A stretch of DNA of 41,829 nucleotides. Origin: Candidatus Nomurabacteria bacterium (GTDB lineage Bacteria; Patescibacteriota; Minisyncoccia; Phycocordibacterales; UBA9973). Shown here piece by piece: positions 28,072 through 41,826 of this stretch. Position 1 is the first letter of the stretch. Every line of letters begins with the position of its first letter. The notes beneath the pieces are model-generated. The model made no database searches. It saw nothing but the letters and a program-made list of their open reading frames with translations, and was not told the DNA's origin. The DNA lies in contig JARIGS010000016.1 of NCBI GenBank assembly GCA_029288725.1, forward strand, positions 1 through 41,829. Reading direction: 5' to 3'. A program made the translations under genes and the position numbers.

Positions 28072-28142
28072 TGCGGGTTCGTCTAATGGTAGGACTACGG
28101 TTTTTGGTGCCGTCTATTGGGGTTCGAGTCCCTGACCCGCAG
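28072..28142 (+). tRNA. trnQ: tRNA-Gln(TTG), integration target
   Basis: Acceptor TGCGGGT/ACCCGCA; anticodon arm ACGGT-TTTTGGT-GCCGT; TTCGAGT T-loop. Confidence 0.92.
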
Positions 28143-29741
28143 CACTCGTGGACTGTTTGCACACATTTGTTCAAACTGTTCTTGTTTTTCAACAGTATTT
28201 ATTGGTTCTAACCGTTCTTTTATCGCTTTTACTTCTCCTGAGACTTTTGTAAGTGGGAACAGGCACTTTTCTATATCAATGCTAATCATTTTATCTTTTA
28301 CTAGCAGGTTCGAACCTAATGCTGAAAGTATTGCGCGTCGTTCATGAATGGTGCCGTTCTTAAACTTTGCCACTGCTTGGTCAATGAATGTGAACATTTC
28401 ATCACCAGTGTTCATCCAAGCATCCACACGCTTCGCCGTTGTTGCAAATAGGTCTTCCAGTCGTTTCTTCTCGGCAAGGAGTGGTGTACGTCTCCTGGTG
28501 AACTCCTCACCGTCAATTTCTCCACTAGCACGCATGTCGGAGAAGCCGTCTATTTTCGCTAGGCAGGCCTTATACGCTTTCTGCTGGCTTTCTACAACCG
28601 CATTACGGCTGCTGATTTCTTTTTCGTTTTCTTTTTCCCACCATTTCATGGCGAACGAATGAAATTCTGGTGGTATATCAACAGTATTTATCTCTGCAAT
28701 AACCTGCTTTTCCAATTCTTTTTGTTCAACGGAACGCTGTGTACAGTTTGGATTAACCCGTTTCGTGCAGTGGTAGTAGACATAGAGATTCACGCTCCCG
28801 TCTCTCAGTTTTTTTGATTTGGTCTCCGCCGTGATTGCTGCACCACACTCTGCACAACGCATCATGCCAGTGAAGTCAAAAACATGTGTCTTTGGTCGTG
28901 GGCGGCCTTTTCTTCCGAGTAGCACCTGAATTTTGTCGTATTCCTCCTCAGTCATGATTGCTTCATGTGTGCCTTGATACCATTTACCACTTCCAATAGG
29001 GTATTCATACATGCCGTAGTAAAACGTGTTTCCAAACATGCGGTAGATTGTGCTTCTTCCGAGCTTCTTGCCCTTTGGTGTTCGAAAGCCCCATTCATTG
29101 TTGGCAATGTCTCTAATCTCAAGGGGCTGATAAGTTCCTGTTAGCATTAGGTCAATCATCTTACGGATAAGCGGCAGGAGTTTCTCGTCAGATACGATAG
29201 TTTTATTTCCTTTTTCGGCATACTTATCATTCAAATAGCCAAGTGGTGCAGGGGCTGGGTAGATACCGAGCTTGGCTTTCTTCTCAAGTCCTCTGGTAAC
29301 ATCGATGCCTTTCTTGTCGTTCTCCATTTTTGCCTGGGTGCAGGCAAGCATGAACATAAACTTGTCCATTGGGGTATTACGGTACGTCTGACCTGGGGTA
29401 ATGATTTCATGCAACCTGCCTCTGTCCATCAGGTCAATAAGTAAAGCACTGTCAATCGCATTACGAGAAAGACGGTCAGCGTGCCACACGATGATGGAAT
29501 TGATAGCTCCGCTTTCAATACGTTCATACATTTCCTTGAACATGGGACGATTGTTTGTAGTCTTGGCGGATTTTGCTTCAACCAGGATGTTCTCCTCAGG
29601 AACCCGTACACCTATATTTCTAGCAATGTCATGGGCTGTGTCTATCTGTGCATCAATGGAGAGCACTTGACGGTCTTCACTTTCACTGCTTTTTCTTCCG
29701 TAAATTGCAGGCTTCAGTTTTATTTCTGCTTCGTTCTTCAT
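28095..29741 (-). CDS. large serine recombinase whose C-terminus is encoded antisense to tRNA-Gln
   Basis: YGRKSS catalytic Ser, DRLSR, recombinase domain, CAEC...YYHC...C Zn ribbon, coiled coil. Confidence 0.93.
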   Translation of the reverse strand: MKNEAEIKLKPAIYGRKSSESEDRQVLSIDAQIDTAHDIARNIGVRVPEENILVEAKSAKTTNNRPMFKEMYERIESGAINSIIVWHADRLSRNAIDSALLIDLMDRGRLHEIITPGQTYRNTPMDKFMFMLACTQAKMENDKKGIDVTRGLEKKAKLGIYPAPAPLGYLNDKYAEKGNKTIVSDEKLLPLIRKMIDLMLTGTYQPLEIRDIANNEWGFRTPKGKKLGRSTIYRMFGNTFYYGMYEYPIGSGKWYQGTHEAIMTEEEYDKIQVLLGRKGRPRPKTHVFDFTGMMRCAECGAAITAETKSKKLRDGSVNLYVYYHCTKRVNPNCTQRSVEQKELEKQVIAEINTVDIPPEFHSFAMKWWEKENEKEISSRNAVVESQQKAYKACLAKIDGFSDMRASGEIDGEEFTRRRTPLLAEKKRLEDLFATTAKRVDAWMNTGDEMFTFIDQAVAKFKNGTIHERRAILSALGSNLLVKDKMISIDIEKCLFPLTKVSGEVKAIKERLEPINTVEKQEQFEQMCANSPRVLRVRDSNPNRRHQKP

Positions 29742-29744
29742 AGG

Positions 29745-29930
29745 CTACTTTATCTTGCTCTTTTCGAGAAAGTTGTGGAACTCCTTTTGCTCAATGCGAA
29801 AGTCCTTGCCGATTTTGTAAGCGGTCAACTTCTTTGCGGCAATAGCGCGGTAAATCGTCATGATGTTTACCCGTAGCTTGTCGGCCAATTCCTTTGCGGT
29901 GTAGTATTCATGCTCTTTCATATTGTCCAT
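29745..29930 (-). CDS. excisionase-like (HTH_17) DNA-binding protein
   Basis: YYTAKELADKLRVNIMTIYR...LTAYKIGKDFRI; 3 bp upstream of the recombinase. Confidence 0.88.
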   Translation of the reverse strand: MDNMKEHEYYTAKELADKLRVNIMTIYRAIAAKKLTAYKIGKDFRIEQKEFHNFLEKSKIK

Positions 29931-29967
29931 ATTAGTATACTTTACTATTCTTTACACAGCAATTCTG

Positions 29968-31089
29968 CTAACTTCTGTTCATCAGCTTCTCGATAATCAT
30001 TTTTTCCTCGTCTGTGAGAATGGATTGGTCTTTGTTCTCACTAGAATTGTTGGTCAACTTTTGAACAATTTTTACAGCATCCTCGTTGCTCATGCTACCG
30101 TAGCCATAAGCACCAAATGTGGTAGCAACATTCTCATGACCAAGGTTCAGGCTGATGGCTCTCTTTTCTTCCTCGGTCAGTCTTCGCTTACTGAGAATAC
30201 TTACAACCAGATGGCGAAATGAGTGCGGGTGGAAATACGGCACACCAGCGTTAATGCATCGCTTCTCATAAATTTTGCGTGCTGCCCCTGTGCCCACCCA
30301 GAAGTCCTTGCTGATAGCCTCTTTGCTGTAGTTGTTTTTGTCTGCCGTGAATGAGCTAAGTGTCGCAGGGAAAATGGGGTCGTCCCCGTTAAAGCCTTTT
30401 GATTCGAGATACTCATACCATTCAACAAAGCACTGCTTTGGTACATCCCAGCCAATAGGGAAAAATGTGCTCAGTATTCGCTTAGAGTTCTTTGTACGGA
30501 CTCCATCACCAGGATTCTGGTCTATTTCCATACTGTTCTTGTCGAAGCTCTTCATTTTCAGGGAGATAATGGCAGAGATGCGAGCTCCAGTGGCAAATGC
30601 AAAGCAAATCATTGCCTTGTCACGCATCGCTATCTCTGTCTTGTCATCAATGGATTCAATGATTTTCTTGATGTCCTCAAACGCTGGCAGCTTCTTTGTC
30701 GTGCCAGAGCGGGCGATGCGTGCATCTTTCTTTGACAGCCGCAGGAAGTCAATATCGCTTTTCACTATCTTGCTTTTGTAAGTCGGCTGCTCGGACAACC
30801 ATTCAAAGAACTTCTTTATTCGCCTTAGATAGTTGTACTGCGTAGTGAGGGAGACTTTCCCTGAATCGGTTTTTGATGCCCGACTGCTCAGCCACTCAGT
30901 AAAGGCGACAGCCTTTGACTTGTTGTAGGTGGAAAAATCCTCATTATCGGTGAATGTTTGCCATTGTGAAATGGCTTCGGCGAACACTCGTACCGAGCTT
31001 TTTGCGAATCCTTGGCCGCCTTTCAGATGGTCAAAGAACTCTCGCTTTATTCGTTCGTTTTCGTAGCTTGTTTTTGTCATAGAAGTCAT
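29968..31089 (-). CDS. tyrosine recombinase
   Basis: TGARISA, RTKN, HSFRH, LGH, YG catalytic set; SAM-like N-terminus. Confidence 0.9.
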   Translation of the reverse strand: MTSMTKTSYENERIKREFFDHLKGGQGFAKSSVRVFAEAISQWQTFTDNEDFSTYNKSKAVAFTEWLSSRASKTDSGKVSLTTQYNYLRRIKKFFEWLSEQPTYKSKIVKSDIDFLRLSKKDARIARSGTTKKLPAFEDIKKIIESIDDKTEIAMRDKAMICFAFATGARISAIISLKMKSFDKNSMEIDQNPGDGVRTKNSKRILSTFFPIGWDVPKQCFVEWYEYLESKGFNGDDPIFPATLSSFTADKNNYSKEAISKDFWVGTGAARKIYEKRCINAGVPYFHPHSFRHLVVSILSKRRLTEEEKRAISLNLGHENVATTFGAYGYGSMSNEDAVKIVQKLTNNSSENKDQSILTDEEKMIIEKLMNRS

Positions 31090-31159
31090 ACAAGTTGTTA
31101 TTGTTAATAATGGACATTTAAGTGGGAGAAGAGAGTATCATTTAGTCCTTTCGGTAGGG

Positions 31160-31504
31160 TTATATTGTCCTGCATATTTTCCCGTTGCAGACACGGCATG
31201 TGCCTAATTTTCTGCCACCCAGCTCCCTGATTGAGCCTCGTCTTGCGTACCGTGCCGCCTTACAGGTAAGGCAGTAAAACTGGTTGCGATTCAGGATAAC
31301 TTTCTTCTTCGCGTCCTTTTTCCTTAGAAAGTCCTTTATGTCGCTGCCCATCATCAGTATGGGTTTCTTGCCCCCAGGTATTGTTTTCAAACCATTGGCA
31401 ATCCATCGGGAGCAAGTCTTTTCATCAACACCAAGTTCGGCTGATAGCTCCTTGACGGTATAGCTCATATGGCCGTAGACTTTTTGACTATTGATTCTAG
31501 TCAT
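31160..31504 (-). CDS. HTH protein with a C-terminal Zn ribbon
   Basis: SYTVKELSAELGVDEKTCSRWI; CLTC...CRVC. Confidence 0.75.
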   Translation of the reverse strand: MTRINSQKVYGHMSYTVKELSAELGVDEKTCSRWIANGLKTIPGGKKPILMMGSDIKDFLRKKDAKKKVILNRNQFYCLTCKAARYARRGSIRELGGRKLGTCRVCNGKICRTI

Positions 31505-31677
31505 ATGCTGCCAGCCGCACTGCTAGTATTTGCGGACTTGGTATCCGCTGCCAAAACAGCCCTGTATAGAGCAAGGAGCTTGTTGGCACGAAACGATGCC
31601 TCCTCGTCGCTTAATACCACGCCGAAACGCTTTTCGTACAAATCCTTATATTCGTCTATGGCCTGCTTCGGTAACAT
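31501..31677 (-). CDS. small hypothetical protein (58 aa)
   Basis: MLPKQAIDEYKDLYEKRFGVVLSDEEA...; ATGA coupling to the next gene; an upstream hairpin argues for a start at 31677. Confidence 0.65.
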   Translation of the reverse strand: MLPKQAIDEYKDLYEKRFGVVLSDEEASFRANKLLALYRAVLAADTKSANTSSAAGSI

Positions 31678-31819
31678 GGCAAGCCGAGTGTATACACATA
31701 AAAAAGCCCTGAAAATTGGGCTTTTTAGGGACGATATGAGTGGTTCTATTAAGAATGCTTTAATTAATAAATATGCAGGCAGCCAATCCACCTATGGACA
31801 CTCCTATTGATTTCATGTT

Positions 31820-33103
31820 CTATTGATATTTGATGACCATTTGGTATTTTCCTGTTCCAATACTATCTATCGTGGCTGGAAAGTTGCCCTTCTTGAGCTT
31901 CGCTCTCAAGCGTTTTAATCCATCTCGAAAGGCTGAATCATCCCTATAGCCCCCAACCTTTTGCAGTGTTTCAATATCAGCATCTTTACCGCTATTTGAA
32001 AGGGTATCATTACGTTCTATTCTAGCGTTCGCAAGCAGTAATTGTATCATCGCCTTTTGTCCTCGTTCGATTGGAACTTTTGTTGTGCCGAAACAGAGAC
32101 TTTCATTCTCAATGAAAATATCCTTCCGAGTTTTGCTTCTTGGAACCGTCAACTGTTGCTCACCAGCACTATCATTTTCCAGTGCTTGTAGAAATGTATT
32201 GTGGACTATTTGAAGAGCTGCCTTGAAGGTAGGCATACTAAGCCTATCGAGCTCGGGGGAGAAAGCCCCCTTAAACTTTCTTGGGCTATCTGGCCGAGTT
32301 TGACCCATCAGATGTTGCAGGTCTTCTGCCATAAATGCTATTTCCATAATATCCTCAGCACGGAACGCATGCCCAAACGCACTTTCTTCGTCTGAAATCT
32401 CCCAGAAGCTCATGTTTTCTAGTACAGCATCGTAAGAGCTCTTAAATTGAAACAGTAGTTCAAATGAACCCCAGGGCTTAAGCGAGCGTTCTCTTTCAAG
32501 TATTATCTCTTGTTCAAAACGCTCAGGCCATTTTTTTGAAAAAATGAAACTACCGCTATCATTTCCCGCGAACCAGTAACCACTGGTACCCTTGATACGC
32601 TGGTAATAGTCTGTATATGCATTCTGCGAAACATGGAAGTCCTTTAGCTCTCCACCATAGCCCATTTTTTGCAAATTTGTAGCGATGTCAAAAAGATACA
32701 CTTGCATGTTATCAGAATAAAAACCACTTCTACGCATTTCCTTGTTCTCATATGCTTCAAGTTCCGCTATTAAATCGTTATAGGGAGGCTTAGGAAAAGT
32801 AGAATGCCGTTCAAACAGGCTTGAATCTATAGAGCTGGTTCTGATAATATCCATGATTTTGTTCTTTGCTGCACGCATTTCTTCTTCTGCCGCTTTCTCA
32901 ATCTCCTCAATTTTTTCATAACGGATGTTACGCTCCCTTATTTGCTTATCAAAAATCCCTTTGAGAAGGGGCGTTTCAAGGGCATATTTTACATATAGCT
33001 CCAATGCCCTGAAAAATGCTAACGCATCTTCTTGTCCAGCAGCGATGGCGTGCAAGCGCTCAAGAGCTTTTTCAGTTTTATCGCTTGAATCCTTAGCAAT
33101 CAT
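31820..33103 (-). CDS. hypothetical protein with a probable C-terminal OmpR-like winged HTH
   Basis: 427 aa; C-terminal AFRDGLKRLRAKL...IDSIGTGKY. Confidence 0.6.
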   Translation of the reverse strand: MIAKDSSDKTEKALERLHAIAAGQEDALAFFRALELYVKYALETPLLKGIFDKQIRERNIRYEKIEEIEKAAEEEMRAAKNKIMDIIRTSSIDSSLFERHSTFPKPPYNDLIAELEAYENKEMRRSGFYSDNMQVYLFDIATNLQKMGYGGELKDFHVSQNAYTDYYQRIKGTSGYWFAGNDSGSFIFSKKWPERFEQEIILERERSLKPWGSFELLFQFKSSYDAVLENMSFWEISDEESAFGHAFRAEDIMEIAFMAEDLQHLMGQTRPDSPRKFKGAFSPELDRLSMPTFKAALQIVHNTFLQALENDSAGEQQLTVPRSKTRKDIFIENESLCFGTTKVPIERGQKAMIQLLLANARIERNDTLSNSGKDADIETLQKVGGYRDDSAFRDGLKRLRAKLKKGNFPATIDSIGTGKYQMVIKYQ

Positions 33104-33184
33104 TTATTTACTTTACTTTACATTTGGCCTGAAAACAACAATGCTTTTTATTTACATTGAACGGGTAAATGGTATAGTACAAGC

Positions 33185-33335
33185 ATAACTGAATAGTAGC
33201 CTAAACCAGCGAATAATCGCTGGCATGGCGAAGAAACCGCACGATACTAAAAACCCCATCAGTAGGGCGTATCGTGCGTCGCGTCTGGAAACGGACGTGT
33301 GGAGCTTCACGGCTTCTCCTAGTGATGGGCTTTTT
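33185..33335 (+). ncRNA. candidate structured RNA or leader in the island
   Basis: TTTACA-16bp-TATAGT promoter; several helices, a GAAA tetraloop, possible pseudoknot, T-run at the end. Confidence 0.5.
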
Positions 33336-33373
33336 CGTGCCTTTTCACTGGGATTATCAGCTAAATAATTTCC

Positions 33374-34546
33374 ATGAAAAACTATTACGAGACACTCGGC
33401 ATTTCCCAGAATGCTACCCAAGAAGAGGTAAAGAACGCTTTTAATAAGGAATCGAAGCTTAACAATTCTGAAGATTTTTCAATACGAGACAAACGTTTCA
33501 GTGAAATCAGTGAGGCATATTTCACCCTTTCAAAGCCAGTAGAACGGGCAAAATATGATTTCAAACTTAGCGGTAAAACCGCTGAAGCATTAAAAAAGCC
33601 AGAAAAAGTAGAGAGTAAGCAAGTGATAAAAAAGAGAAACCCACTTCTCACTGGCTTATATACTGTCCTAGCCGTTATAGGTGCCGTTGGTATCTTCAGT
33701 TCACTGTTCCCTCAAAGCTATACAGTGTATCCTGTCGGCTGTGCAATTTCGGATTCTGCCAACCTAACGGTCAACTCTTCTGGCGAGCTTGATTTTACTC
33801 ACTGCCAAAACCCTCAAGCTGGCGAGCGAGAAACATTCAAGGTTGATGCTGGTAAGAACCAAGTTATAGAAACATCCCCAGATAGTTCTGATGTTGTAGC
33901 ACTGAAGGATTGTACCGTTCAGGATGATGAGCACTGGAGTTGTGGTGATTATTCGAATTGGTCTGGTGGCATATTCGGAGCAATAGTAACAAGTAGAAGT
34001 GGCGACAACTTTAGCGAATCAGGTCTATCAGGGATTTATTTTGTAACTGAAAGCCAGTGGAACTCTATCAATAACGGCAAGCCTGGTTCTTGCAGCACTG
34101 ATGCTTGTAGTGGTAAAAATCCTGGCTCATCAACAGACAGCGATACAACACAAAGCACGGTAACGATTGGGAATGACCCAGTAACTCAGGGGAATATAAA
34201 ATACACTTTTGACTTAAACAATTTAGGAAACACTATTCCAAATGATAGTGGTAATTTTTCAGGAATGACCACAAATGGAGCGTGGGAAGCGGTTACGTTG
34301 CATATGACCAACACCTCTGATTCCAATGTTGTGATTACTCCTACACAATTTCAGCTGACAGACCAGACTGGGCGGCAGTATCAGCCTACAGCCTGGTACC
34401 TATGCAATGACACGGTTGAACATGAGGGTACGGACTACGGCAGCAGCATAACGCTGAAGCCAGGAATAGACTGTGATACGAAGGTACTATTTGAAACAGC
34501 GAAGGATTCAAACGCCTTCACAATATCGGTCAACTACAATAGCTAG
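33374..34546 (+). CDS. J-like domain (no HPD) + TM + Cys-rich and DUF4352-like extracellular domains
   Basis: NYYETLG...ISEAY.TL....R..YD; one TM; FQLTD..GRQY, LKPG, VLFE. Confidence 0.7.
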   Translation: MKNYYETLGISQNATQEEVKNAFNKESKLNNSEDFSIRDKRFSEISEAYFTLSKPVERAKYDFKLSGKTAEALKKPEKVESKQVIKKRNPLLTGLYTVLAVIGAVGIFSSLFPQSYTVYPVGCAISDSANLTVNSSGELDFTHCQNPQAGERETFKVDAGKNQVIETSPDSSDVVALKDCTVQDDEHWSCGDYSNWSGGIFGAIVTSRSGDNFSESGLSGIYFVTESQWNSINNGKPGSCSTDACSGKNPGSSTDSDTTQSTVTIGNDPVTQGNIKYTFDLNNLGNTIPNDSGNFSGMTTNGAWEAVTLHMTNTSDSNVVITPTQFQLTDQTGRQYQPTAWYLCNDTVEHEGTDYGSSITLKPGIDCDTKVLFETAKDSNAFTISVNYNS

Positions 34547-35325
34547 GAACTCATTAAGTCGGGATATTTTTCCGTAATAGCTTTCCTTGCCAGGTTCGCC
34601 AGAGGTACCAAGTACTGCTCCAGTTTTTGGAACGGGAAGCTCTTTCCGCCGTTAGGATGCATGTTGTCACGCAAATGCGTGTAAATGGATACTCTTGTTA
34701 CGCCTTTGCCTCTTCGAGTGGAAGGCTCTGTCTCTACTGATGGCTCACTCGCAATAATGTACTTCTCAACGTCTATTCCCAGCAGGTATTTTGCAACGTG
34801 CTCCAAAACTCGGTAGTAGAGGATGAACTGAAGTTGTTTTGAAGTCTCCGAAACAGCTTCTCTCCACATCATCAGGACGTTTTCACGCTCGGTATCCACC
34901 TCTTCCTCAAAGACCCTCTTCAGCCTATCCAGGCTTTCTCTGCCGAGCCCTAGGGTCATAGACACCCTGTCAGCCGTCATTGCAAAGTCCATGACATCAA
35001 CACTTATTCTTCGGCTGCCGCTGCCGTCTCGCTCTTCCTGGGTTCTGCTTAACGAAACGACCTTGTAGCTCCCAGTCGAGACGTTGTACCTCCAGCTAAG
35101 AACGTTTGACAGTTTCAGCAGCTCTGATTCTGCCAGGAACATAGCCTGGGGGTTGTCTTGAGCCTGTAGCTCAAACCTGATGTCTATGAGGTCATTGTCA
35201 TTGGGATTGCTACTGACGATGCCTTTCAACCCTGAGGAAGTATTGTATTCTAAGGGCTCGTTTAGGCTGATTCCATTCCCTCCGTCCCCGATTTTTATTG
35301 CGGCTGCTACATTAAATTTGTTCAT
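34543..35325 (-). CDS. hypothetical protein, MauJ/HEPN-like
   Basis: QFILYYRVLE...LRDNMH helical C-terminus. Confidence 0.45.
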   Translation of the reverse strand: MNKFNVAAAIKIGDGGNGISLNEPLEYNTSSGLKGIVSSNPNDNDLIDIRFELQAQDNPQAMFLAESELLKLSNVLSWRYNVSTGSYKVVSLSRTQEERDGSGSRRISVDVMDFAMTADRVSMTLGLGRESLDRLKRVFEEEVDTERENVLMMWREAVSETSKQLQFILYYRVLEHVAKYLLGIDVEKYIIASEPSVETEPSTRRGKGVTRVSIYTHLRDNMHPNGGKSFPFQKLEQYLVPLANLARKAITEKYPDLMSS

Positions 35326-35401
35326 TGCCTACATATTACGATAAATAGACATATCTTGCCCATGGCTGGCATATGGCCTGCTTTTCCTATAAGCTATTCA
35401 C

Positions 35402-36109
35402 ATGAATCTCGAAGAATTTGCTGTTACATTTGCGTCAGACCTTGCTACAAACAGCACAGAGCTACTGATATGGTCGCAGCTGCCCATTCATGTGCAGGTA
35501 ATGTACGTTTTATGCAAAACGCTATATGGTGGCATCGTCTCTCTTCGAAAGAAGCGTTCGAACGACTTCTTTGCCGCTATTGCTGAACATGCTGACAAGT
35601 TTACAAGTGTGATTTTGAACAATGAGCAGGTGCAAGATGCTTTCATGCTGGTGTTTCAGCAGTACATTACGGAACGAAATGAACAGAAGCGAAAGGCCAT
35701 CTTCAATATCTTGCTAGGCTTCATAAGTGAGGAAGACAAAGAAAATTTCGAGCTTGAAAAGATGGCGAGCGTGTTGAGGTTGGTATCAGTAGAAGACATA
35801 GAAGTCGTTAGAATCTGGGTCGATGGAGGTGTTGAGGATTGGCTTCGTAGCCAGGGCATATATCAAGAAAATCAAATTGAGGCGCAGGCAAAACGTGGCT
35901 TGAATCCGATGCAGTATGGAGACCTTATACTGTCGCAGATGAGGGGAATGGTTCAGTTCAGTGATAAGCAGTATACGTTTGAGAAATTGAACTACCTTGT
36001 AGGCATTGGATTATTATCAGAAGACATTGGCACTTCGTTTGAGGGTAATGGTGATTTTGCAATATCTACCTTTGGTAAAAAGTTCCTTAGGTATATTCAA
36101 GAACTATAG
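35402..36109 (+). CDS. hypothetical protein, DUF4393/Abi-alpha-like
   Basis: EQKR...NIL, L..L...GLL, ISTFGKKFLRYI winged-helix-like end. Confidence 0.5.
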   Translation: MNLEEFAVTFASDLATNSTELLIWSQLPIHVQVMYVLCKTLYGGIVSLRKKRSNDFFAAIAEHADKFTSVILNNEQVQDAFMLVFQQYITERNEQKRKAIFNILLGFISEEDKENFELEKMASVLRLVSVEDIEVVRIWVDGGVEDWLRSQGIYQENQIEAQAKRGLNPMQYGDLILSQMRGMVQFSDKQYTFEKLNYLVGIGLLSEDIGTSFEGNGDFAISTFGKKFLRYIQEL

Positions 36110-36145
36110 AATGACTTTTCAGTTCCAAACTGATACAGTTTCAGC

Positions 36146-36616
36146 ATGGACATACACATTCGAAAGGCAACCGAAAGCGACACCAGTGCTATTACCGAAC
36201 TGAATTTGCTGATAGCAGACCACCATGCCGACATAGATGGCTTCTACGCTCGTGGGGAGGAGGTGAACAAAACGTTCCCAGCCTTCCTTAGCGAGGACTT
36301 GGCAAAGGAGACGTCTTTGAACCTTGTTGCTGAAACTGACGGTAAAATCGTCGGCTGGTTCTCTGGCTCTATCAAGCGTGACGTGCCCCACCTGTCGGAA
36401 AAGGTCTTTGCCCATATTGGTAGTGCCATCATTCTCCCAGAATACCGAGGCAGGGGCATCGCAAGACTGATGTTCCAGGAAATGGTTGCCTGGTTCAAGG
36501 AAAAGGGTGCCAAGGTCGTAGACCTGTCGGTCGATGCCCGCAACCCAGAGGGTCTGCGTGCCTGGGAGGGTCTTGGCTTCAAGGAATATGCCAAGAAGAT
36601 GAAGATGGAGATTTAA
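36146..36616 (+). CDS. GNAT acetyltransferase
   Basis: PEYRGRGIA, N...W..LGF. Confidence 0.9.
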   Translation: MDIHIRKATESDTSAITELNLLIADHHADIDGFYARGEEVNKTFPAFLSEDLAKETSLNLVAETDGKIVGWFSGSIKRDVPHLSEKVFAHIGSAIILPEYRGRGIARLMFQEMVAWFKEKGAKVVDLSVDARNPEGLRAWEGLGFKEYAKKMKMEI

Positions 36617-36637
36617 GCATAGAAAATAGTTAGTATT

Positions 36638-37090
36638 ATGACCGACTACCAAATCATAGAAATCAGTGATAGCAATATCGACAATCTACAGCCGCTTGCA
36701 GACGAGGCTTTAGCCGATGGGGACAAGTTCATTCAGAAGACCATTGACGAATGGAAGGGCGGGGCAAACACCTTTTCAAAAAATGGGGAGAAGTTCTGGG
36801 CACTGGTTATTGGCGATGAGTACATTGCCTGCGGTGGTCTTAACCAAGACCCGTATACTGAGGACAAGACAGTGGGACGTGTCCGACACGTTTATGTACT
36901 CAAAAAATACAGGGGGCAAGGCTATTCAAAAGTCATTCTCAACCTGATTATGGAGCAGGCTAAGAAGTATTTTCACTCATTGCGGCTTTCCACATACAAT
37001 CCAGTTGCCGCTTCGCTATACCAGTCGCTCGGCTTTGAGAAGGTTGATGAGTACAAGGCAAATTACATAATCAGGAACCTAAATAACTAA
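36638..37090 (+). CDS. GNAT acetyltransferase
   Basis: RHVYV..KYRGQG, LYQSLGF. Confidence 0.9.
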   Translation: MTDYQIIEISDSNIDNLQPLADEALADGDKFIQKTIDEWKGGANTFSKNGEKFWALVIGDEYIACGGLNQDPYTEDKTVGRVRHVYVLKKYRGQGYSKVILNLIMEQAKKYFHSLRLSTYNPVAASLYQSLGFEKVDEYKANYIIRNLNN

Positions 37091-37100
37091 AGAAGCAGTA

Positions 37101-37183
37101 TTACCAGCTTCTCACAAATGCGAACTTTTGTAGGTCAGAAATGGTCATTAAGTTGGTTCTAACTTCGTCCAGTGCCCACAGCA
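37101..37183 (-). other. detached 3' end of the serine recombinase gene (tail of the excised form)
   Basis: In frame after the core: WALDEVRTNLMTISDLQKFAFVRSW-stop. Confidence 0.75.
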
Positions 37184-37192
37184 AATAAAAAA

Positions 37193-37211
37193 GACTGTTT
37201 ATTAAACAGTC
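37193..37211. terminator. terminator hairpin just outside the island
   Basis: GACTGTTT-ATT-AAACAGTC with a T-run on the - strand. Confidence 0.6.
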
Positions 37212-37238
37212 CTTGATAGAGAAAATAAATTATTCATC

Positions 37239-37622
37239 CTAAGAGTTTGCGAATGGATCAGTGAAGGTATGTTCAGGAAAATGGAATACCAGACACTTGA
37301 TGTTTAACTCTTTGAGCATGTCTTTGATTTTGAAAAACGTAACATCGTCTACTATAACTAATTCAAGATTGCTCTTGTCGAAAGAAAAGATCTTTTGAGT
37401 TTGAGCATTTATAGAAGTTCTAGTACTAAATGCAATTGTTTTGTACTTTGATAGGTCATAGTCATTTCGTGAATAAAGATTTTCTTCATGCTTGAACGGT
37501 ACTCCATCTGATTCAAAAATAAATTCCATCGCAAGTTCAAATTGCTCCATGTGTGTTCCGTTGCAAATTGCAACAGGGTATTTGATCCTTTCGAAAAAGT
37601 CTCCTAGCCAGGTTGTCTGCAT
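37239..37622 (-). CDS. hypothetical protein
   Basis: 127 aa; TTGACA-16bp-TAGTAT promoter; AGAAAAAC leader. Confidence 0.65.
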   Translation of the reverse strand: MQTTWLGDFFERIKYPVAICNGTHMEQFELAMEFIFESDGVPFKHEENLYSRNDYDLSKYKTIAFSTRTSINAQTQKIFSFDKSNLELVIVDDVTFFKIKDMLKELNIKCLVFHFPEHTFTDPFANS

Positions 37623-39447: not shown

Positions 39448-39520
39448 AGTTTTTTAATTTAGAGGTTTTTCTTAATCCTACTCCTCCCAAAAAATTCGTC
39501 AAATAGGCTATACTGACCGC

Positions 39521-39835
39521 ATGACATTTAGTGAGCGAGTGGTACGGCTGGCATTGATGGTGCCTCCAGGCAAGGTCACGACCTATGGGCGCATTGCCAT
39601 AGCGGCTGGCGGGGGAGCGATGGCATCGCAGAGCGTGACTGCCATCCTTGGTAAGGCTTATCTAGCCGGACAAAGAGATATTCCTTTCCATCGGATTGTC
39701 TATGCCGACGGCCGGGTGTGGATCGACGATGCCCATCGTGCCAAACGATTGAAGCTGTACAAGGAAGAGGGTATTGTACTTGATGCAAAGGGATTCATTG
39801 TTGATTTTCGTGACAAGCTCTTTGAATTCATCTAG
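39521..39835 (+). CDS. alkyltransferase-like (ATL/MGMT-family) protein
   Basis: VPPGKVTTYG.IA, PFHRIV (no catalytic Cys), L..EG. Confidence 0.85.
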   Translation: MTFSERVVRLALMVPPGKVTTYGRIAIAAGGGAMASQSVTAILGKAYLAGQRDIPFHRIVYADGRVWIDDAHRAKRLKLYKEEGIVLDAKGFIVDFRDKLFEFI

Positions 39836-39906
39836 CTATTGCAAAACGGTTCAGACAGGTATAGAGTTTGAGGAAACCAATTCGTTCACTCTAAATTGTA
39901 GATCGT

Positions 39907-40119
39907 ATGAACATACTTAAGGTTACTACTCTGCTGGTCATATTGGCCATATCGTGGGCATTTTCCCTTGTGCTCGTATTATTGTTCACCGGCTCACTTT
40001 CTTCATTTTTACCCTATTACTTAAAAGGCCTTGCATGCATTGCAACAATGGTGCTTATGATAGCCCTGTATTGCATGGATCAGCCCATGCTCAAAAATTA
40101 TAAAAGGAAGGAAGCATAA
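39907..40119 (+). CDS. small 2-TM hypothetical protein
   Basis: 70-aa hydrophobic ORF followed by the palindrome at 40138-40167. Confidence 0.6.
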   Translation: MNILKVTTLLVILAISWAFSLVLVLLFTGSLSSFLPYYLKGLACIATMVLMIALYCMDQPMLKNYKRKEA

Positions 40120-40137
40120 GTCTGCATCTTTTTTAAT

Positions 40138-40167
40138 AAAGGTCATTCATCATGATGAATGACCTTT
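40138..40167. terminator. perfect 30-bp palindromic terminator
   Basis: AAAGGTCATTCATCATGATGAATGACCTTT followed by T-runs. Confidence 0.75.
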
Positions 40168-40209
40168 TTATTTTTTGTTCATCATTCTGAAGAGTGGTAT
40201 CATATCACT

Positions 40210-41577
40210 ATGAGCGAAAGCGATCTTGAGAACATTGTCGCGATGCCAGCCGAACTGTTAGAGGCCGGTGTTGAAAAGGCGACACTCCTGGAAAAGGAAA
40301 TTATCAATAAGAAACCATTCACGGTCGCAAAAGAATACTGGAACAATCTTGGTCCTGGTCTTACTACCGGTGCTTCTGATGATGACCCTTCCGGTATTGC
40401 AACTTATTCACAGACCGGTGCCCAGTACGGCACCCAGCTACTCTGGCTGTCACTGTTCACGTTTCCATTAATGGCCGTAGTCCAGGAAATGTGTGCTCGC
40501 ATCGGCATGGTCAGCGGTCGGGGATTGGCAGCGAATATCCGCCTGCATTATTCCAAGACGATACTGTATATCGCTACCTTTTTTCTTGTTGCAGCAAACG
40601 TCTTTAATATCGGCGCCGACTTGGGAGCGATGGCCCAGGGTGCCCGATTGCTGTCACCGCAGCTGAGCTTCGGATTACTCGTCATTGGCTTCGGTGTGCT
40701 CAGCTTGTTACTGCAGATTTTCACGACCTATGCCCGCTATGCTAAGTACCTCAAATACCTGGCATTAGTATTGTTGTCATACGTCTTCTCATCACTCTTC
40801 ATCAACCTGCACTGGCATGTCGTGCTCTTTCATACCTTTGTACCGTCACTCAATTTCTCCCGCCAGCAGCTCTTCCTGATCTGTGCCATTCTCGGTACAA
40901 CCATTTCGCCGTACCTTTTCTTCTGGCAGACTTCCCAGGAAGTGGAAGAGGAAATCCTAAAAGGCGAGCAGACTATCAGTGAGCGACAGCACGCTGTTCG
41001 TTCTCGCGATATCAAAAGCATGCGGGCCGATGTCTGGACCGGCATGTTCGTATCAAATGTTGTGATGTTCTTCATCATTGCCGTTTGCGGAGCGACGCTG
41101 TACACCCACGGTATCACTAACATCACCAGCGCTGCTGATGCTGCTACGGCACTGAAGCCATTTGCAGGAAACCTTGCCTACGTACTGTTTGCAATCGGCA
41201 TCATGGGCACTGGTATGCTTGCTATTCCGGTCCTGGCTGGCGCATCATCGTATGCCGTGTCTGAAAGCATGGGCTGGAAGTTCGGTCTGTACCGCAAGTT
41301 AAAAAATGCCTACGCATTCTATGGCGTTATTATCCTAGCCATGATTGTCGGTATCGGTCTGAACTTTATTGGTCTTGATCCGATCAAGGCATTGATCTAT
41401 TCTGCCGTGGGAAATGGCCTTGTGGCGCCAATCATTCTCTTCTTTGTCGTCCAGCTTAGTAGCAACAAGGACATCATGGGCAAATACGTAAACAAGCGGC
41501 ACATTACCTGGCTCGGCTGGCTCATCACTGCGGTAATGGCAGTAGCAGGGATAGCGGTGATTGTATCGTTGTTCTAG
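40210..41577 (+). CDS. NRAMP-family divalent cation transporter
   Basis: GPGL...DDDPSGIATYSQ.GA, QEMCARIG, GTTISPY; about 11 TM; start 6 nt after TATCAT. Confidence 0.9.
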   Translation: MSESDLENIVAMPAELLEAGVEKATLLEKEIINKKPFTVAKEYWNNLGPGLTTGASDDDPSGIATYSQTGAQYGTQLLWLSLFTFPLMAVVQEMCARIGMVSGRGLAANIRLHYSKTILYIATFFLVAANVFNIGADLGAMAQGARLLSPQLSFGLLVIGFGVLSLLLQIFTTYARYAKYLKYLALVLLSYVFSSLFINLHWHVVLFHTFVPSLNFSRQQLFLICAILGTTISPYLFFWQTSQEVEEEILKGEQTISERQHAVRSRDIKSMRADVWTGMFVSNVVMFFIIAVCGATLYTHGITNITSAADAATALKPFAGNLAYVLFAIGIMGTGMLAIPVLAGASSYAVSESMGWKFGLYRKLKNAYAFYGVIILAMIVGIGLNFIGLDPIKALIYSAVGNGLVAPIILFFVVQLSSNKDIMGKYVNKRHITWLGWLITAVMAVAGIAVIVSLF

Positions 41578-41638: not shown

Positions 41639-41711
41639 GGGCCCTTAGCTCAGCTGGTAGAGCAGTGCTTTTGCAAAGCAAAGGTCAGGAGTTCGAATCT
41701 CCTAGGGTCCA
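41639..41711 (+). tRNA. trnA: tRNA-Ala(TGC)
   Basis: GGGCCCT/AGGGTCC with G3:U70; TTTGCAA anticodon loop; TTCGAAT T-loop. Confidence 0.93.
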
Positions 41712-41753
41712 CAAAGAAAAAACCATTATCAGGAGATAATGGTTTTTTCTTTG

Positions 41754-41826
41754 TGGACCCTAGGAGATTCGAACTCCTGACCTTTGCTTTGCAAAAGCAC
41801 TGCTCTACCAGCTGAGCTAAGGGCCC
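41754..41826 (-). tRNA. inverted copy of tRNA-Ala(TGC), probably a fold-back artefact
   Basis: Identical mirror of 41639-41711. Confidence 0.3.

Follow-up and report, generated by a model that had tools for sequence, protein, structure and literature searches.

How does a recombinase insert its element at a tRNA gene when its own gene seems to end inside that tRNA gene? The question is raised by a stretch of 41,829 nucleotides from Candidatus Nomurabacteria bacterium (contig JARIGS010000016.1), referred to here at its full length as the window, in which the gene of a large serine recombinase (LSR) runs on the minus strand through the short sequence CAGCA into tRNA-Gln(UUG). The answer proposed here is that positions 28145–37183 would be a 9039-bp integrative element, inserted by its own LSR at the 3′ end of this tRNA gene, and that the element carries its attachment site in the last codons of the recombinase. 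This architecture, together with the rule by which the enzyme would read its sites, is well supported and is considered very probable.

The LSR ends in ...SPRVL followed by RVRDSNPNRRHQKP, and its final 14 residues are read from the antisense strand of tRNA-Gln(UUG). On this point, first made in an initial annotation drawn from the letters of the window, the open reading frame (ORF) of 548 aa, the ARAGORN call and the sequence agree. The tRNA gene is intact and free of a long duplication, as that annotation also held: ARAGORN recognizes it as whole, and a repeat search of the window detected neither a displaced tRNA fragment nor a long direct repeat of the tRNA downstream, beyond 5 bp. The 9-mers around the two CAGCA cores are identical at eight of nine positions. 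When the two ends are joined by coordinates, at any point in the core, they yield a 9039-bp circle in which the LSR frame gains 25 residues, WALDEVRTNLMTISDLQKFAFVRSW (37104–37178, minus strand; stop at 37101–37103), and reaches 559 aa. The stop of this parked tail lies 10 nt from that of a convergent GNAT gene (36638–37090), which bears out the earlier claim of a circular frame ending just before the GNAT stop. The two junctions differ in the base just left of the core and in the sixth base to its right: the exchange must therefore fall within the 5 bp, and the dinucleotide exchanged would be one of those that they contain. As a 5-mer, CAGCA is common (129 copies in the window, 106 expected), so that the case for the boundaries must rest on other evidence.

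Related genomes supply part of that evidence. The source genome comprises 725 kb in 29 contigs and has many relatives within its genus. Three of these (G021, G017 and G006) lack the island and display an empty site in conserved synteny, in the order holB, tRNA-Gln, an interval of 1.5–3.3 kb, homologues of window positions 39466–41574 and tRNA-Ala. The corresponding interval in the window measures 11.3 kb, which is reduced to 2.3 kb once the island is subtracted. In G021, the nearest of the three, AATAAAAAAGAC and a hairpin stand directly after the tRNA and match the window from 37184, with 12 identical bases at the right junction; G017 has a tRNA that is 100% identical, followed by a similar A-rich stretch and a hairpin. 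In a further genome, G022, nucleotide homology to the right flank stops exactly at 37179. At E ≤ 1e-30 there are no LSR matches in G021, G017 and G022, and G006 contains distant LSR matches only (34 and 41% identity). The distribution within the genus is patchy: full-length close homologues (at least 62% identity) are found in 4 of 51 genomes, and their four sites are tRNA-Gln(UUG), tRNA-Gln(CUG), tRNA-Ser and tRNA-Arg. The empty sites, the end of homology in G022 and the profile match of the parked tail described below support the proposal that the island ends at the two CAGCA cores.

Several of these genomes show further features at or near such sites. In G022 (L007, 800–1380) a 575-bp insert with a small ORF separates tRNA-Gln from the homologue of the right flank and ends in a second ...CAGCAAATAAAAAAGAC; it may be what remains of an older element that had used this site. 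In G001 (L181, 1816–2043) a homologue of the second HTH_17 gene of the island lies ∼0.7 kb downstream of holB, and tRNA-Gln is not called at that locus; a related element may be present at this site or may have disrupted it. The source genome itself has an unoccupied tRNA-Gln(CUG) (L002, contig C25, 1502–1573), which is 97% identical to the targeted tRNA-Gln(UUG) and has the same 3′ end; in the same-genus genome G063 a recombinase of 74% identity is fused to tRNA-Gln(CUG). Three additional, distant serine-recombinase genes reside in the source genome (C4:22410–23456, C4:36346–37389 and C22:4770–6023), with 28–37% identity and open frames of ∼450–547 aa.

The pattern extends far beyond the genus. 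Of 8000 candidates scored in a protein search, 3788 were relatives at E ≤ 1e-3, and 160 loci from genome and metagenome contigs were sampled among the matches listed (at least 599 stretches). The recombinase ORF ends overlapping an antisense tRNA in 92 of the 160; in 23 the end is of a VRT type by a loose pattern, in 19 it is cut by the contig end, and the other 26 include several ends that are VRT- or tRNA-like on inspection. The 92 fused ends are distributed over 12 tRNA species: Asn (27), His (18), Gln (17), Ser (8), Trp (7), Glu (3), Tyr (3), Lys (2), Ile (2), Asp (2), Arg (2) and Gly (1). When the tails of the best 120 homologues were classed by what follows an invariant LEP motif, 51 proved tRNA-like (DSN/ESN...), 43 stopped within a few residues of the crossover, 14 were of the (D/N)(E/D)VRT type, 10 were of another kind and 2 were truncated. 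The predicted bimodality of DSN/ESN and VRT-type C-termini is thus present, joined by the short class. Over their first 520 residues the VRT-type proteins are 65–92% identical to their nearest fused or short neighbours, from which it follows that the tail type reflects a state and not a lineage. Among viral contigs 67 loci were recovered, all of them distant and matching approximately the first 350 residues only.

If the tail is left behind on integration, it should be found upstream of fused genes. In 78 integrated loci, including the window, with at least 1500 nt upstream and a flank of up to 10 kb, a scan was made for the strict motif [DNEK][EDANKV][VI]R[TI], in frame and after a shared core of at least 4 nt. 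A parked tail was found in 21 of the 78, at a distance of 2.2–11.5 kb upstream, whereas the reverse-complemented upstream regions, used as a control, gave 2 of 78; the cores in 21 related loci are 4–13 bp long. A profile hidden Markov model (HMM) built from the tails of seven homologues, the window excluded, was also run against a six-frame translation of the window and of loci L034–L180, comprising 82,290 fragments. It matches the parked tail of the window at E 2.5e-10, and the other significant matches are in L037 (1.6e-13), L047 (2.1e-7) and L042 (5.3e-6). All four lie on the strand of the LSR and upstream of its gene, as the model requires. The viral loci gave weak matches only in this six-frame search (E ≥ 4.4, for example L126, L155 and L171).

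A few loci depart from the simple arrangement of one fused gene and one parked tail. L061, L229 and L255 each have two parked tails upstream of one fused gene. In L037 (5840–9730) an LSR with a different, intact tail of its own (…NEVRMYFELNPDDQ) is preceded, at a distance of 2.2 kb, by a parked LDEVRT...NTW tail, and the contig ends 82 nt after the tail of that LSR, which suggests a co-integrate of two elements. L198 (11590–11850) contains a full-length LSR with its tail intact and, 90 nt past the stop, an intact antisense tRNA whose 3′ end resembles the crossover region of the LSR itself: an apparently intact attP would thus stand beside a candidate attB. L059, a record labelled as Pacearchaeota archaeon, harbours a family member fused to tRNA-His, reflecting either a binning or labelling error or an occurrence across domains.

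Why should the tail of an enzyme carry so well-conserved a motif as VRT? At the DNA level the motif reads T(A/C)GAAC(C/T), and the tRNA arm of the same junctions reads TCGAACC, the antisense of the T-arm. Codon choice in 47 instances (23 in genes and 24 parked) was compared with the first 500 codons of the same genes. Val/Ile is written GTT 26, GTC 7, ATT 7, ATC 5 and ATA 2 times; Arg AGA 25, CGA 17, CGC 3 and AGG 2; and Thr ACT 22, ACC 21, ACG 2 and ACA 1, with one Ile (ATT) in its place. Arg is encoded by NGA in 42 of 47 motif positions against 608 of 1504 in the background (p 1e-11), Thr by ACY in 43 of 46 against 577 of 1068 (p 2e-8) and Val/Ile by NTY in 45 of 47 against 1626 of 2403 (p 5e-6); as the sequences are related, these p-values overstate the case and are upper bounds on significance. 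Position tells the same story. With both motifs measured from the same aligned core, in the B′ and P′ arms only, the tail motif lies exactly 5 bp farther out than the tRNA motif in 21 of 24 parked tails. Three tails deviate: L049 (+8) and L206 (−10), both weak candidates, and L188 (+8, or +5 by an alternative alignment). In the window GGTTCGA and GGTTCTA are 13 and 18 nt from their respective cores. The same shift is on record for a Listeria phage integrase, whose zinc-ribbon domain recognizes a 9-bp motif at attP half-site positions 16–24 that is displaced by 5 bp towards the centre in attB (PMC3783163; PMC11722253). The +5 offset and the restriction at synonymous sites, taken together, indicate that L-D-E-V-R-T represents, above all, the P′ half-site of attP; the L-D codons are explained by TGGA(C), which both arms carry at an equal offset. 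Judged from sequence, the conserved DEVRT is probably for the most part a DNA footprint, a copy of the T-arm TCGAACC. The initial annotation had taken its conservation as the sign of a conserved protein tail, a view that these two results do not support.

The steps of the proposed mechanism can now be set out. The attP site, of ∼50 bp, would lie wholly inside the last LSR codons: the P arm would be formed by the codons for ...NSPRVL, the crossover would take place in the 5-bp core, and the P′ arm would consist of the first 9 of the 25 tail codons. Because attP is placed inside the coding end of the LSR, integration cuts the gene. The tail would then remain at attR, 9 kb distant, and the ORF would continue into the antisense strand of the tRNA, which stays whole because its last 1–5 bases alone are swapped, for identical ones. 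The zinc-ribbon domain is the predicted reader of the motif: it would recognize TCGAACC in the B′ arm and the mimic T(A/C)GAAC(C/T) 5 bp farther out in the P′ arm, and it is this mimic that would be read in frame as the VRT of the conserved tail. A T-arm is present in every tRNA, which accounts for the movement of relatives between at least 12 tRNA species. The element is presumably still mobile.

The identity of the enzyme responsible has to be weighed, as islands borne by tRNA genes are usually inserted by tyrosine recombinases and the element encodes one (29968–31089), which is paired with a separate HTH_17 gene and kept in related elements. On that account the LSR would stand at the border by happenstance. 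This is very improbable: the ends share 5 bp only, there is no displaced tRNA fragment, and fusion to a tRNA follows the LSR where the tyrosine enzyme is absent, for the LSR is fused in 92 of the 160 sampled loci and the tyrosine enzyme occurs in just 15, all of which makes that enzyme an unlikely inserter. Moreover, the parked tails restore the frame of the LSR and carry its half-site at +5. It is more improbable still that chance alone explains why the ORF runs into the tRNA and why CAGCA occurs a second time, or that the element is a fixed and immobile remnant. The abundance of CAGCA in the window speaks for this reading; against it speak the HMM match of the parked tail, the empty sites in three relatives, the patchy distribution in the genus, the intact state of the LSR ORF and of the parked tail, and the recurrence of the pattern in independent loci.

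Insertion by the LSR through an attP inside its own gene is therefore preferred, and a number of observations weigh against it. No parked tail was found within the flank of up to 10 kb in 57 of the 78 integrated loci, nor in 13 kb in G063, which contains the closest relative within the genus. In 26 loci the VRT-type gene is uninterrupted, and many of these are on long chromosomal contigs; the arrangement is accounted for in L048 alone, which represents the inner junction of a tandem array. (In L048, 10001–20281, a second LSR, fused to tRNA-Asn, lies 6.9 kb downstream of one with an uninterrupted VRT tail.) Terminal repeats of at least 15 nt, indicative of a circular contig, occur in none of the 160 loci, a weak test given that many loci are parts of contigs. 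The P and B arms are devoid of a T-arm-like motif. The sequences counted throughout are mutually related, and the loci are a sample. Finally, the rebuilt attP shows weak dyad symmetry. The AGTGC/GCACT inverted repeat to which the initial annotation pointed does exist, but it is centred on a base that differs between attL and attR and so cannot mark the crossover; in 9 of 22 cases across the family the best centre of symmetry is within the shared core. CA at 28140–28141 had been considered as the central dinucleotide, on the strength of TGGAC at positions 9–13 of both arms, and was dropped because of this low proportion.

Does the exchange of tails alter the enzyme, such that the 559-aa form of the circle and the 548-aa form of the integrated state differ in activity, direction or stability? 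In our view the swap is chiefly a side effect of the position of attP. That it also changes the behaviour of the enzyme, as a functional switch adding to the explanation preferred here, is possible, though we consider it unlikely. In its favour, the subfamily of the window retains F-x-(I/L/F)-V-x-x-W-stop beyond the ∼27-bp half-site (25–27 bp). In five DNA sequences this ending is conserved although its codons vary synonymously (F TTC/TTT, A GCA/GCT/GCG, V GTG/GTA, R AGA/CGA/CGG, stop TAA/TAG), and it recurs in seven further proteins that are 52–77% identical in the body. In other subfamilies 11 of 48 tails share a hydrophobic-I-P-x-L motif, located ∼15 residues beyond VRT, in which Pro is written with each of its four codons. 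In the tail, the distal F-x-I-V-x-x-W part alone looks selected as protein. Integrated tails, in turn, are arbitrary, with 0–25 tRNA-antisense residues, and there is the precedent of myxophage Mx8, in which integration alters the 3′ end of int and the specificity of the enzyme (PMC6070905). On the other side, the part of the tail that is universal is explained by DNA, the length of the tail beyond the motif varies from 8 to 56 residues, with many tails lacking a common end or a shared distal motif, and AlphaFold2 places little confidence in this region (in the homologue P0013, predicted local distance difference test (pLDDT) of ∼51 for a helix at 535–546 and below 50 for residues 547–558). An excisionase-like HTH_17 gene adjoins the LSR, so that the usual control by a separate factor is available; and the tail-less form must still excise, as the element would otherwise be trapped. 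Somewhat more doubtful is the full picture of an LSR clade of small genomes, of the Candidate Phyla Radiation type, that uses the T-arm as its landing motif, keeps attP in its own codons, makes a full-length form with the conserved C-terminal peptide from the free element and a tail-less one from the prophage, tunes direction or stability by means of the tail peptide and in this way senses its integration state without a separate regulator.

The recombinase itself appears to fit every LSR feature that can be assessed from sequence. It contains PF00239 (residues 12–159, E 2.1e-19), PF07508 (190–275, E 2.3e-8) and PF13408 (290–352, E 1.5e-11). In an alignment of 42 sequences Y14, R16, S18, R65, R90 and R93 are invariant, as are Cys296, 299, 325 and 333; R16, S18 and other residues of the catalytic domain are also invariant in an alignment of 82, and S18 would be the nucleophile. 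An AlphaFold2 model of P0013, a full-tail homologue and not the protein of the window (82-row alignment, mean pLDDT 78), includes coiled-coil helices at 360–405 and 411–462 with pLDDT 84–94. Among solved chains the nearest are SPbeta integrase (E 9.5e-13) and A118 integrase.

With the canonical serine integrases (Listeria A118/LI, SPbeta SprA, Bxb1 and phiC31) the enzyme shares the order of Resolvase, Recombinase and zinc-ribbon domains, the long coiled-coil helices in the ribbon domain (predicted, in the homologue), and short att sites with few identical central bases, here a 5-bp core, and with the distal motif 5 bp nearer the centre in attB than in attP. Enzymes of this kind recombine attP with attB unaided by host factors and depend on a directionality factor for attL x attR. 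The differences are equally clear: canonical attP sites lie beside the integrase gene whereas here attP would be inside its coding end, integration here alters the protein, and the targets are the 3′ ends of tRNA genes instead of protein-coding or intergenic sites. Fusion to 12 tRNA species in 92 of the 160 sampled loci of one clade contradicts the rule as stated. These junctions also provide a natural and many times repeated test of the 5-bp zinc-ribbon shift model, which was itself derived from few phages.

An attP within the integrase gene, and a C-terminus changed by integration, are otherwise familiar from tyrosine recombinases. The SSV1 int gene is cut by integration into a tRNA gene, and SSV1, a fusellovirus, resembles the present system in having an integrase gene that spans attP; unlike the LSR, its integrase is an archaeal tyrosine recombinase whose gene is split into two large parts and not trimmed of a tail. 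SSV integrases extend across attP (PMC4383910), and in Mx8 (IntP/IntX) attP lies within int, such that integration creates a new 3′ end and a different C-terminus (PMC6070905; PMC4383910). The Mx8 enzyme belongs to the tyrosine recombinases and acts on a long attP with multiple arms, in contrast with the serine recombinase, the ∼50-bp site and the swapped part of only 25 residues found here. The LSR thus has its attP inside the ORF and works like the Mx8/SSV1 group, but its serine-recombinase domains make it a non-member: what it does is extend this design to the other recombinase superfamily. Islander-type islands and tycheposons likewise have an intact tRNA adjoining the island and an integrase gene at the tRNA-proximal border; their classic mark, a repeat of the tRNA 3′ end at the far end of the island, is missing from the element, in which no displaced tRNA fragment is present and a serine recombinase would be responsible.

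LSRs are reported on 27 of 937 tRNA-associated elements of Prochlorococcus (bioRxiv 10.1101/2020.12.28.424599); the portion of that preprint consulted does not state the positions of their att sites. The full-text literature searched, which excludes supplements and subscription journals, describes neither an attP within the gene of a serine integrase nor a clade of serine integrases that targets tRNA genes, and "tRNA" occurs 0 times in the main text of Durrant et al. 2022. A need for ∼50 bp only and a half-site in nearly every tRNA gene would make such enzymes a set of orthogonal integrases that is already at hand and whose landing sites can be predicted, a possible tool for organisms that are hard to engineer. 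A warning for annotation also follows: the DSN...SYH ends of many database recombinases are read-through of the tRNA antisense strand and not features of the protein.

Table. Positions of the tRNA gene, the putative attachment sites and the genes of the element in the window
Feature	Position	Strand	Basis or remark
tRNA-Gln(UUG), intact	28072–28143	+	ARAGORN; 3′ part is the B′ arm of attL
T-arm sequence GGTTCGA	28121–28127		TCGAACC on the integrase strand
attL core CAGCA	28140–28144		shared with attR; crossover inside these 5 bp
LSR, integrated isoform, 548 aa	28095–29741	−	ORF and Pfam
HTH_17 protein, 61 aa, excisionase-like	29745–29930	−	PF12728, E 1.9e-10; PHROG 66
Tyrosine recombinase, 373 aa	29968–31089	−	PF00589
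Second HTH_17 protein	31160–31504	−	backbone
96-aa ORF	31501–31791	−	backbone
Cargo: ORFs of 427, 89, 260 and 235 aa, DnaJ-DUF4352 protein, two GNAT acetyltransferases	31820–37090		
Parked C-terminal tail, 25 codons and stop	37101–37178	−	read in the circular form only
P′ half-site			coincides with the first 9 codons of the parked tail
T-arm mimic GGTTCTA	37155–37161		inside the parked tail
attR core CAGCA	37179–37183		homology of G022 to the flank stops at 37179
B arm of the former attB: A-run and hairpin	37184–37215		terminator of a 127-aa ORF (37239–37622, −)

The genes between the two junctions fall into a backbone and a cargo. The backbone order (96-aa ORF, HTH_17, tyrosine recombinase, HTH_17, LSR) recurs in the closest relatives, with the first four genes present in 34, 11, 15 and 15 loci, respectively. 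For the tyrosine recombinase the tally of 15 includes 12 listed loci, and the gene stands upstream of the LSR in the same order and orientation: it is a conserved part of the backbone and not a nested second element. The tyrosine recombinase, its HTH_17 neighbour and the 96-aa ORF (29968–31791) form a module conserved with the LSR in related elements, for which dimer resolution or a second integration route is a candidate role. The proximal HTH_17 gene is located directly upstream of the LSR gene, whose start it abuts or overlaps in 11 related loci; its product is a candidate directionality factor or regulator.

The cargo genes are not shared with related elements, except for one weak match to the 235-aa ORF. 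The 427-aa ORF belongs to no Pfam or PHROG family, and in Atlas it falls into unnamed clusters with recognition below the mark. No virion genes were found in the element, which looks like a small integrative element. At the far end of the window, outside the element, positions 41639–41826 form a perfect fold-back consisting of tRNA-Ala(UGC) on the plus strand, a hairpin and the same tRNA-Ala inverted, which looks like a palindromic assembly artefact of the contig end.

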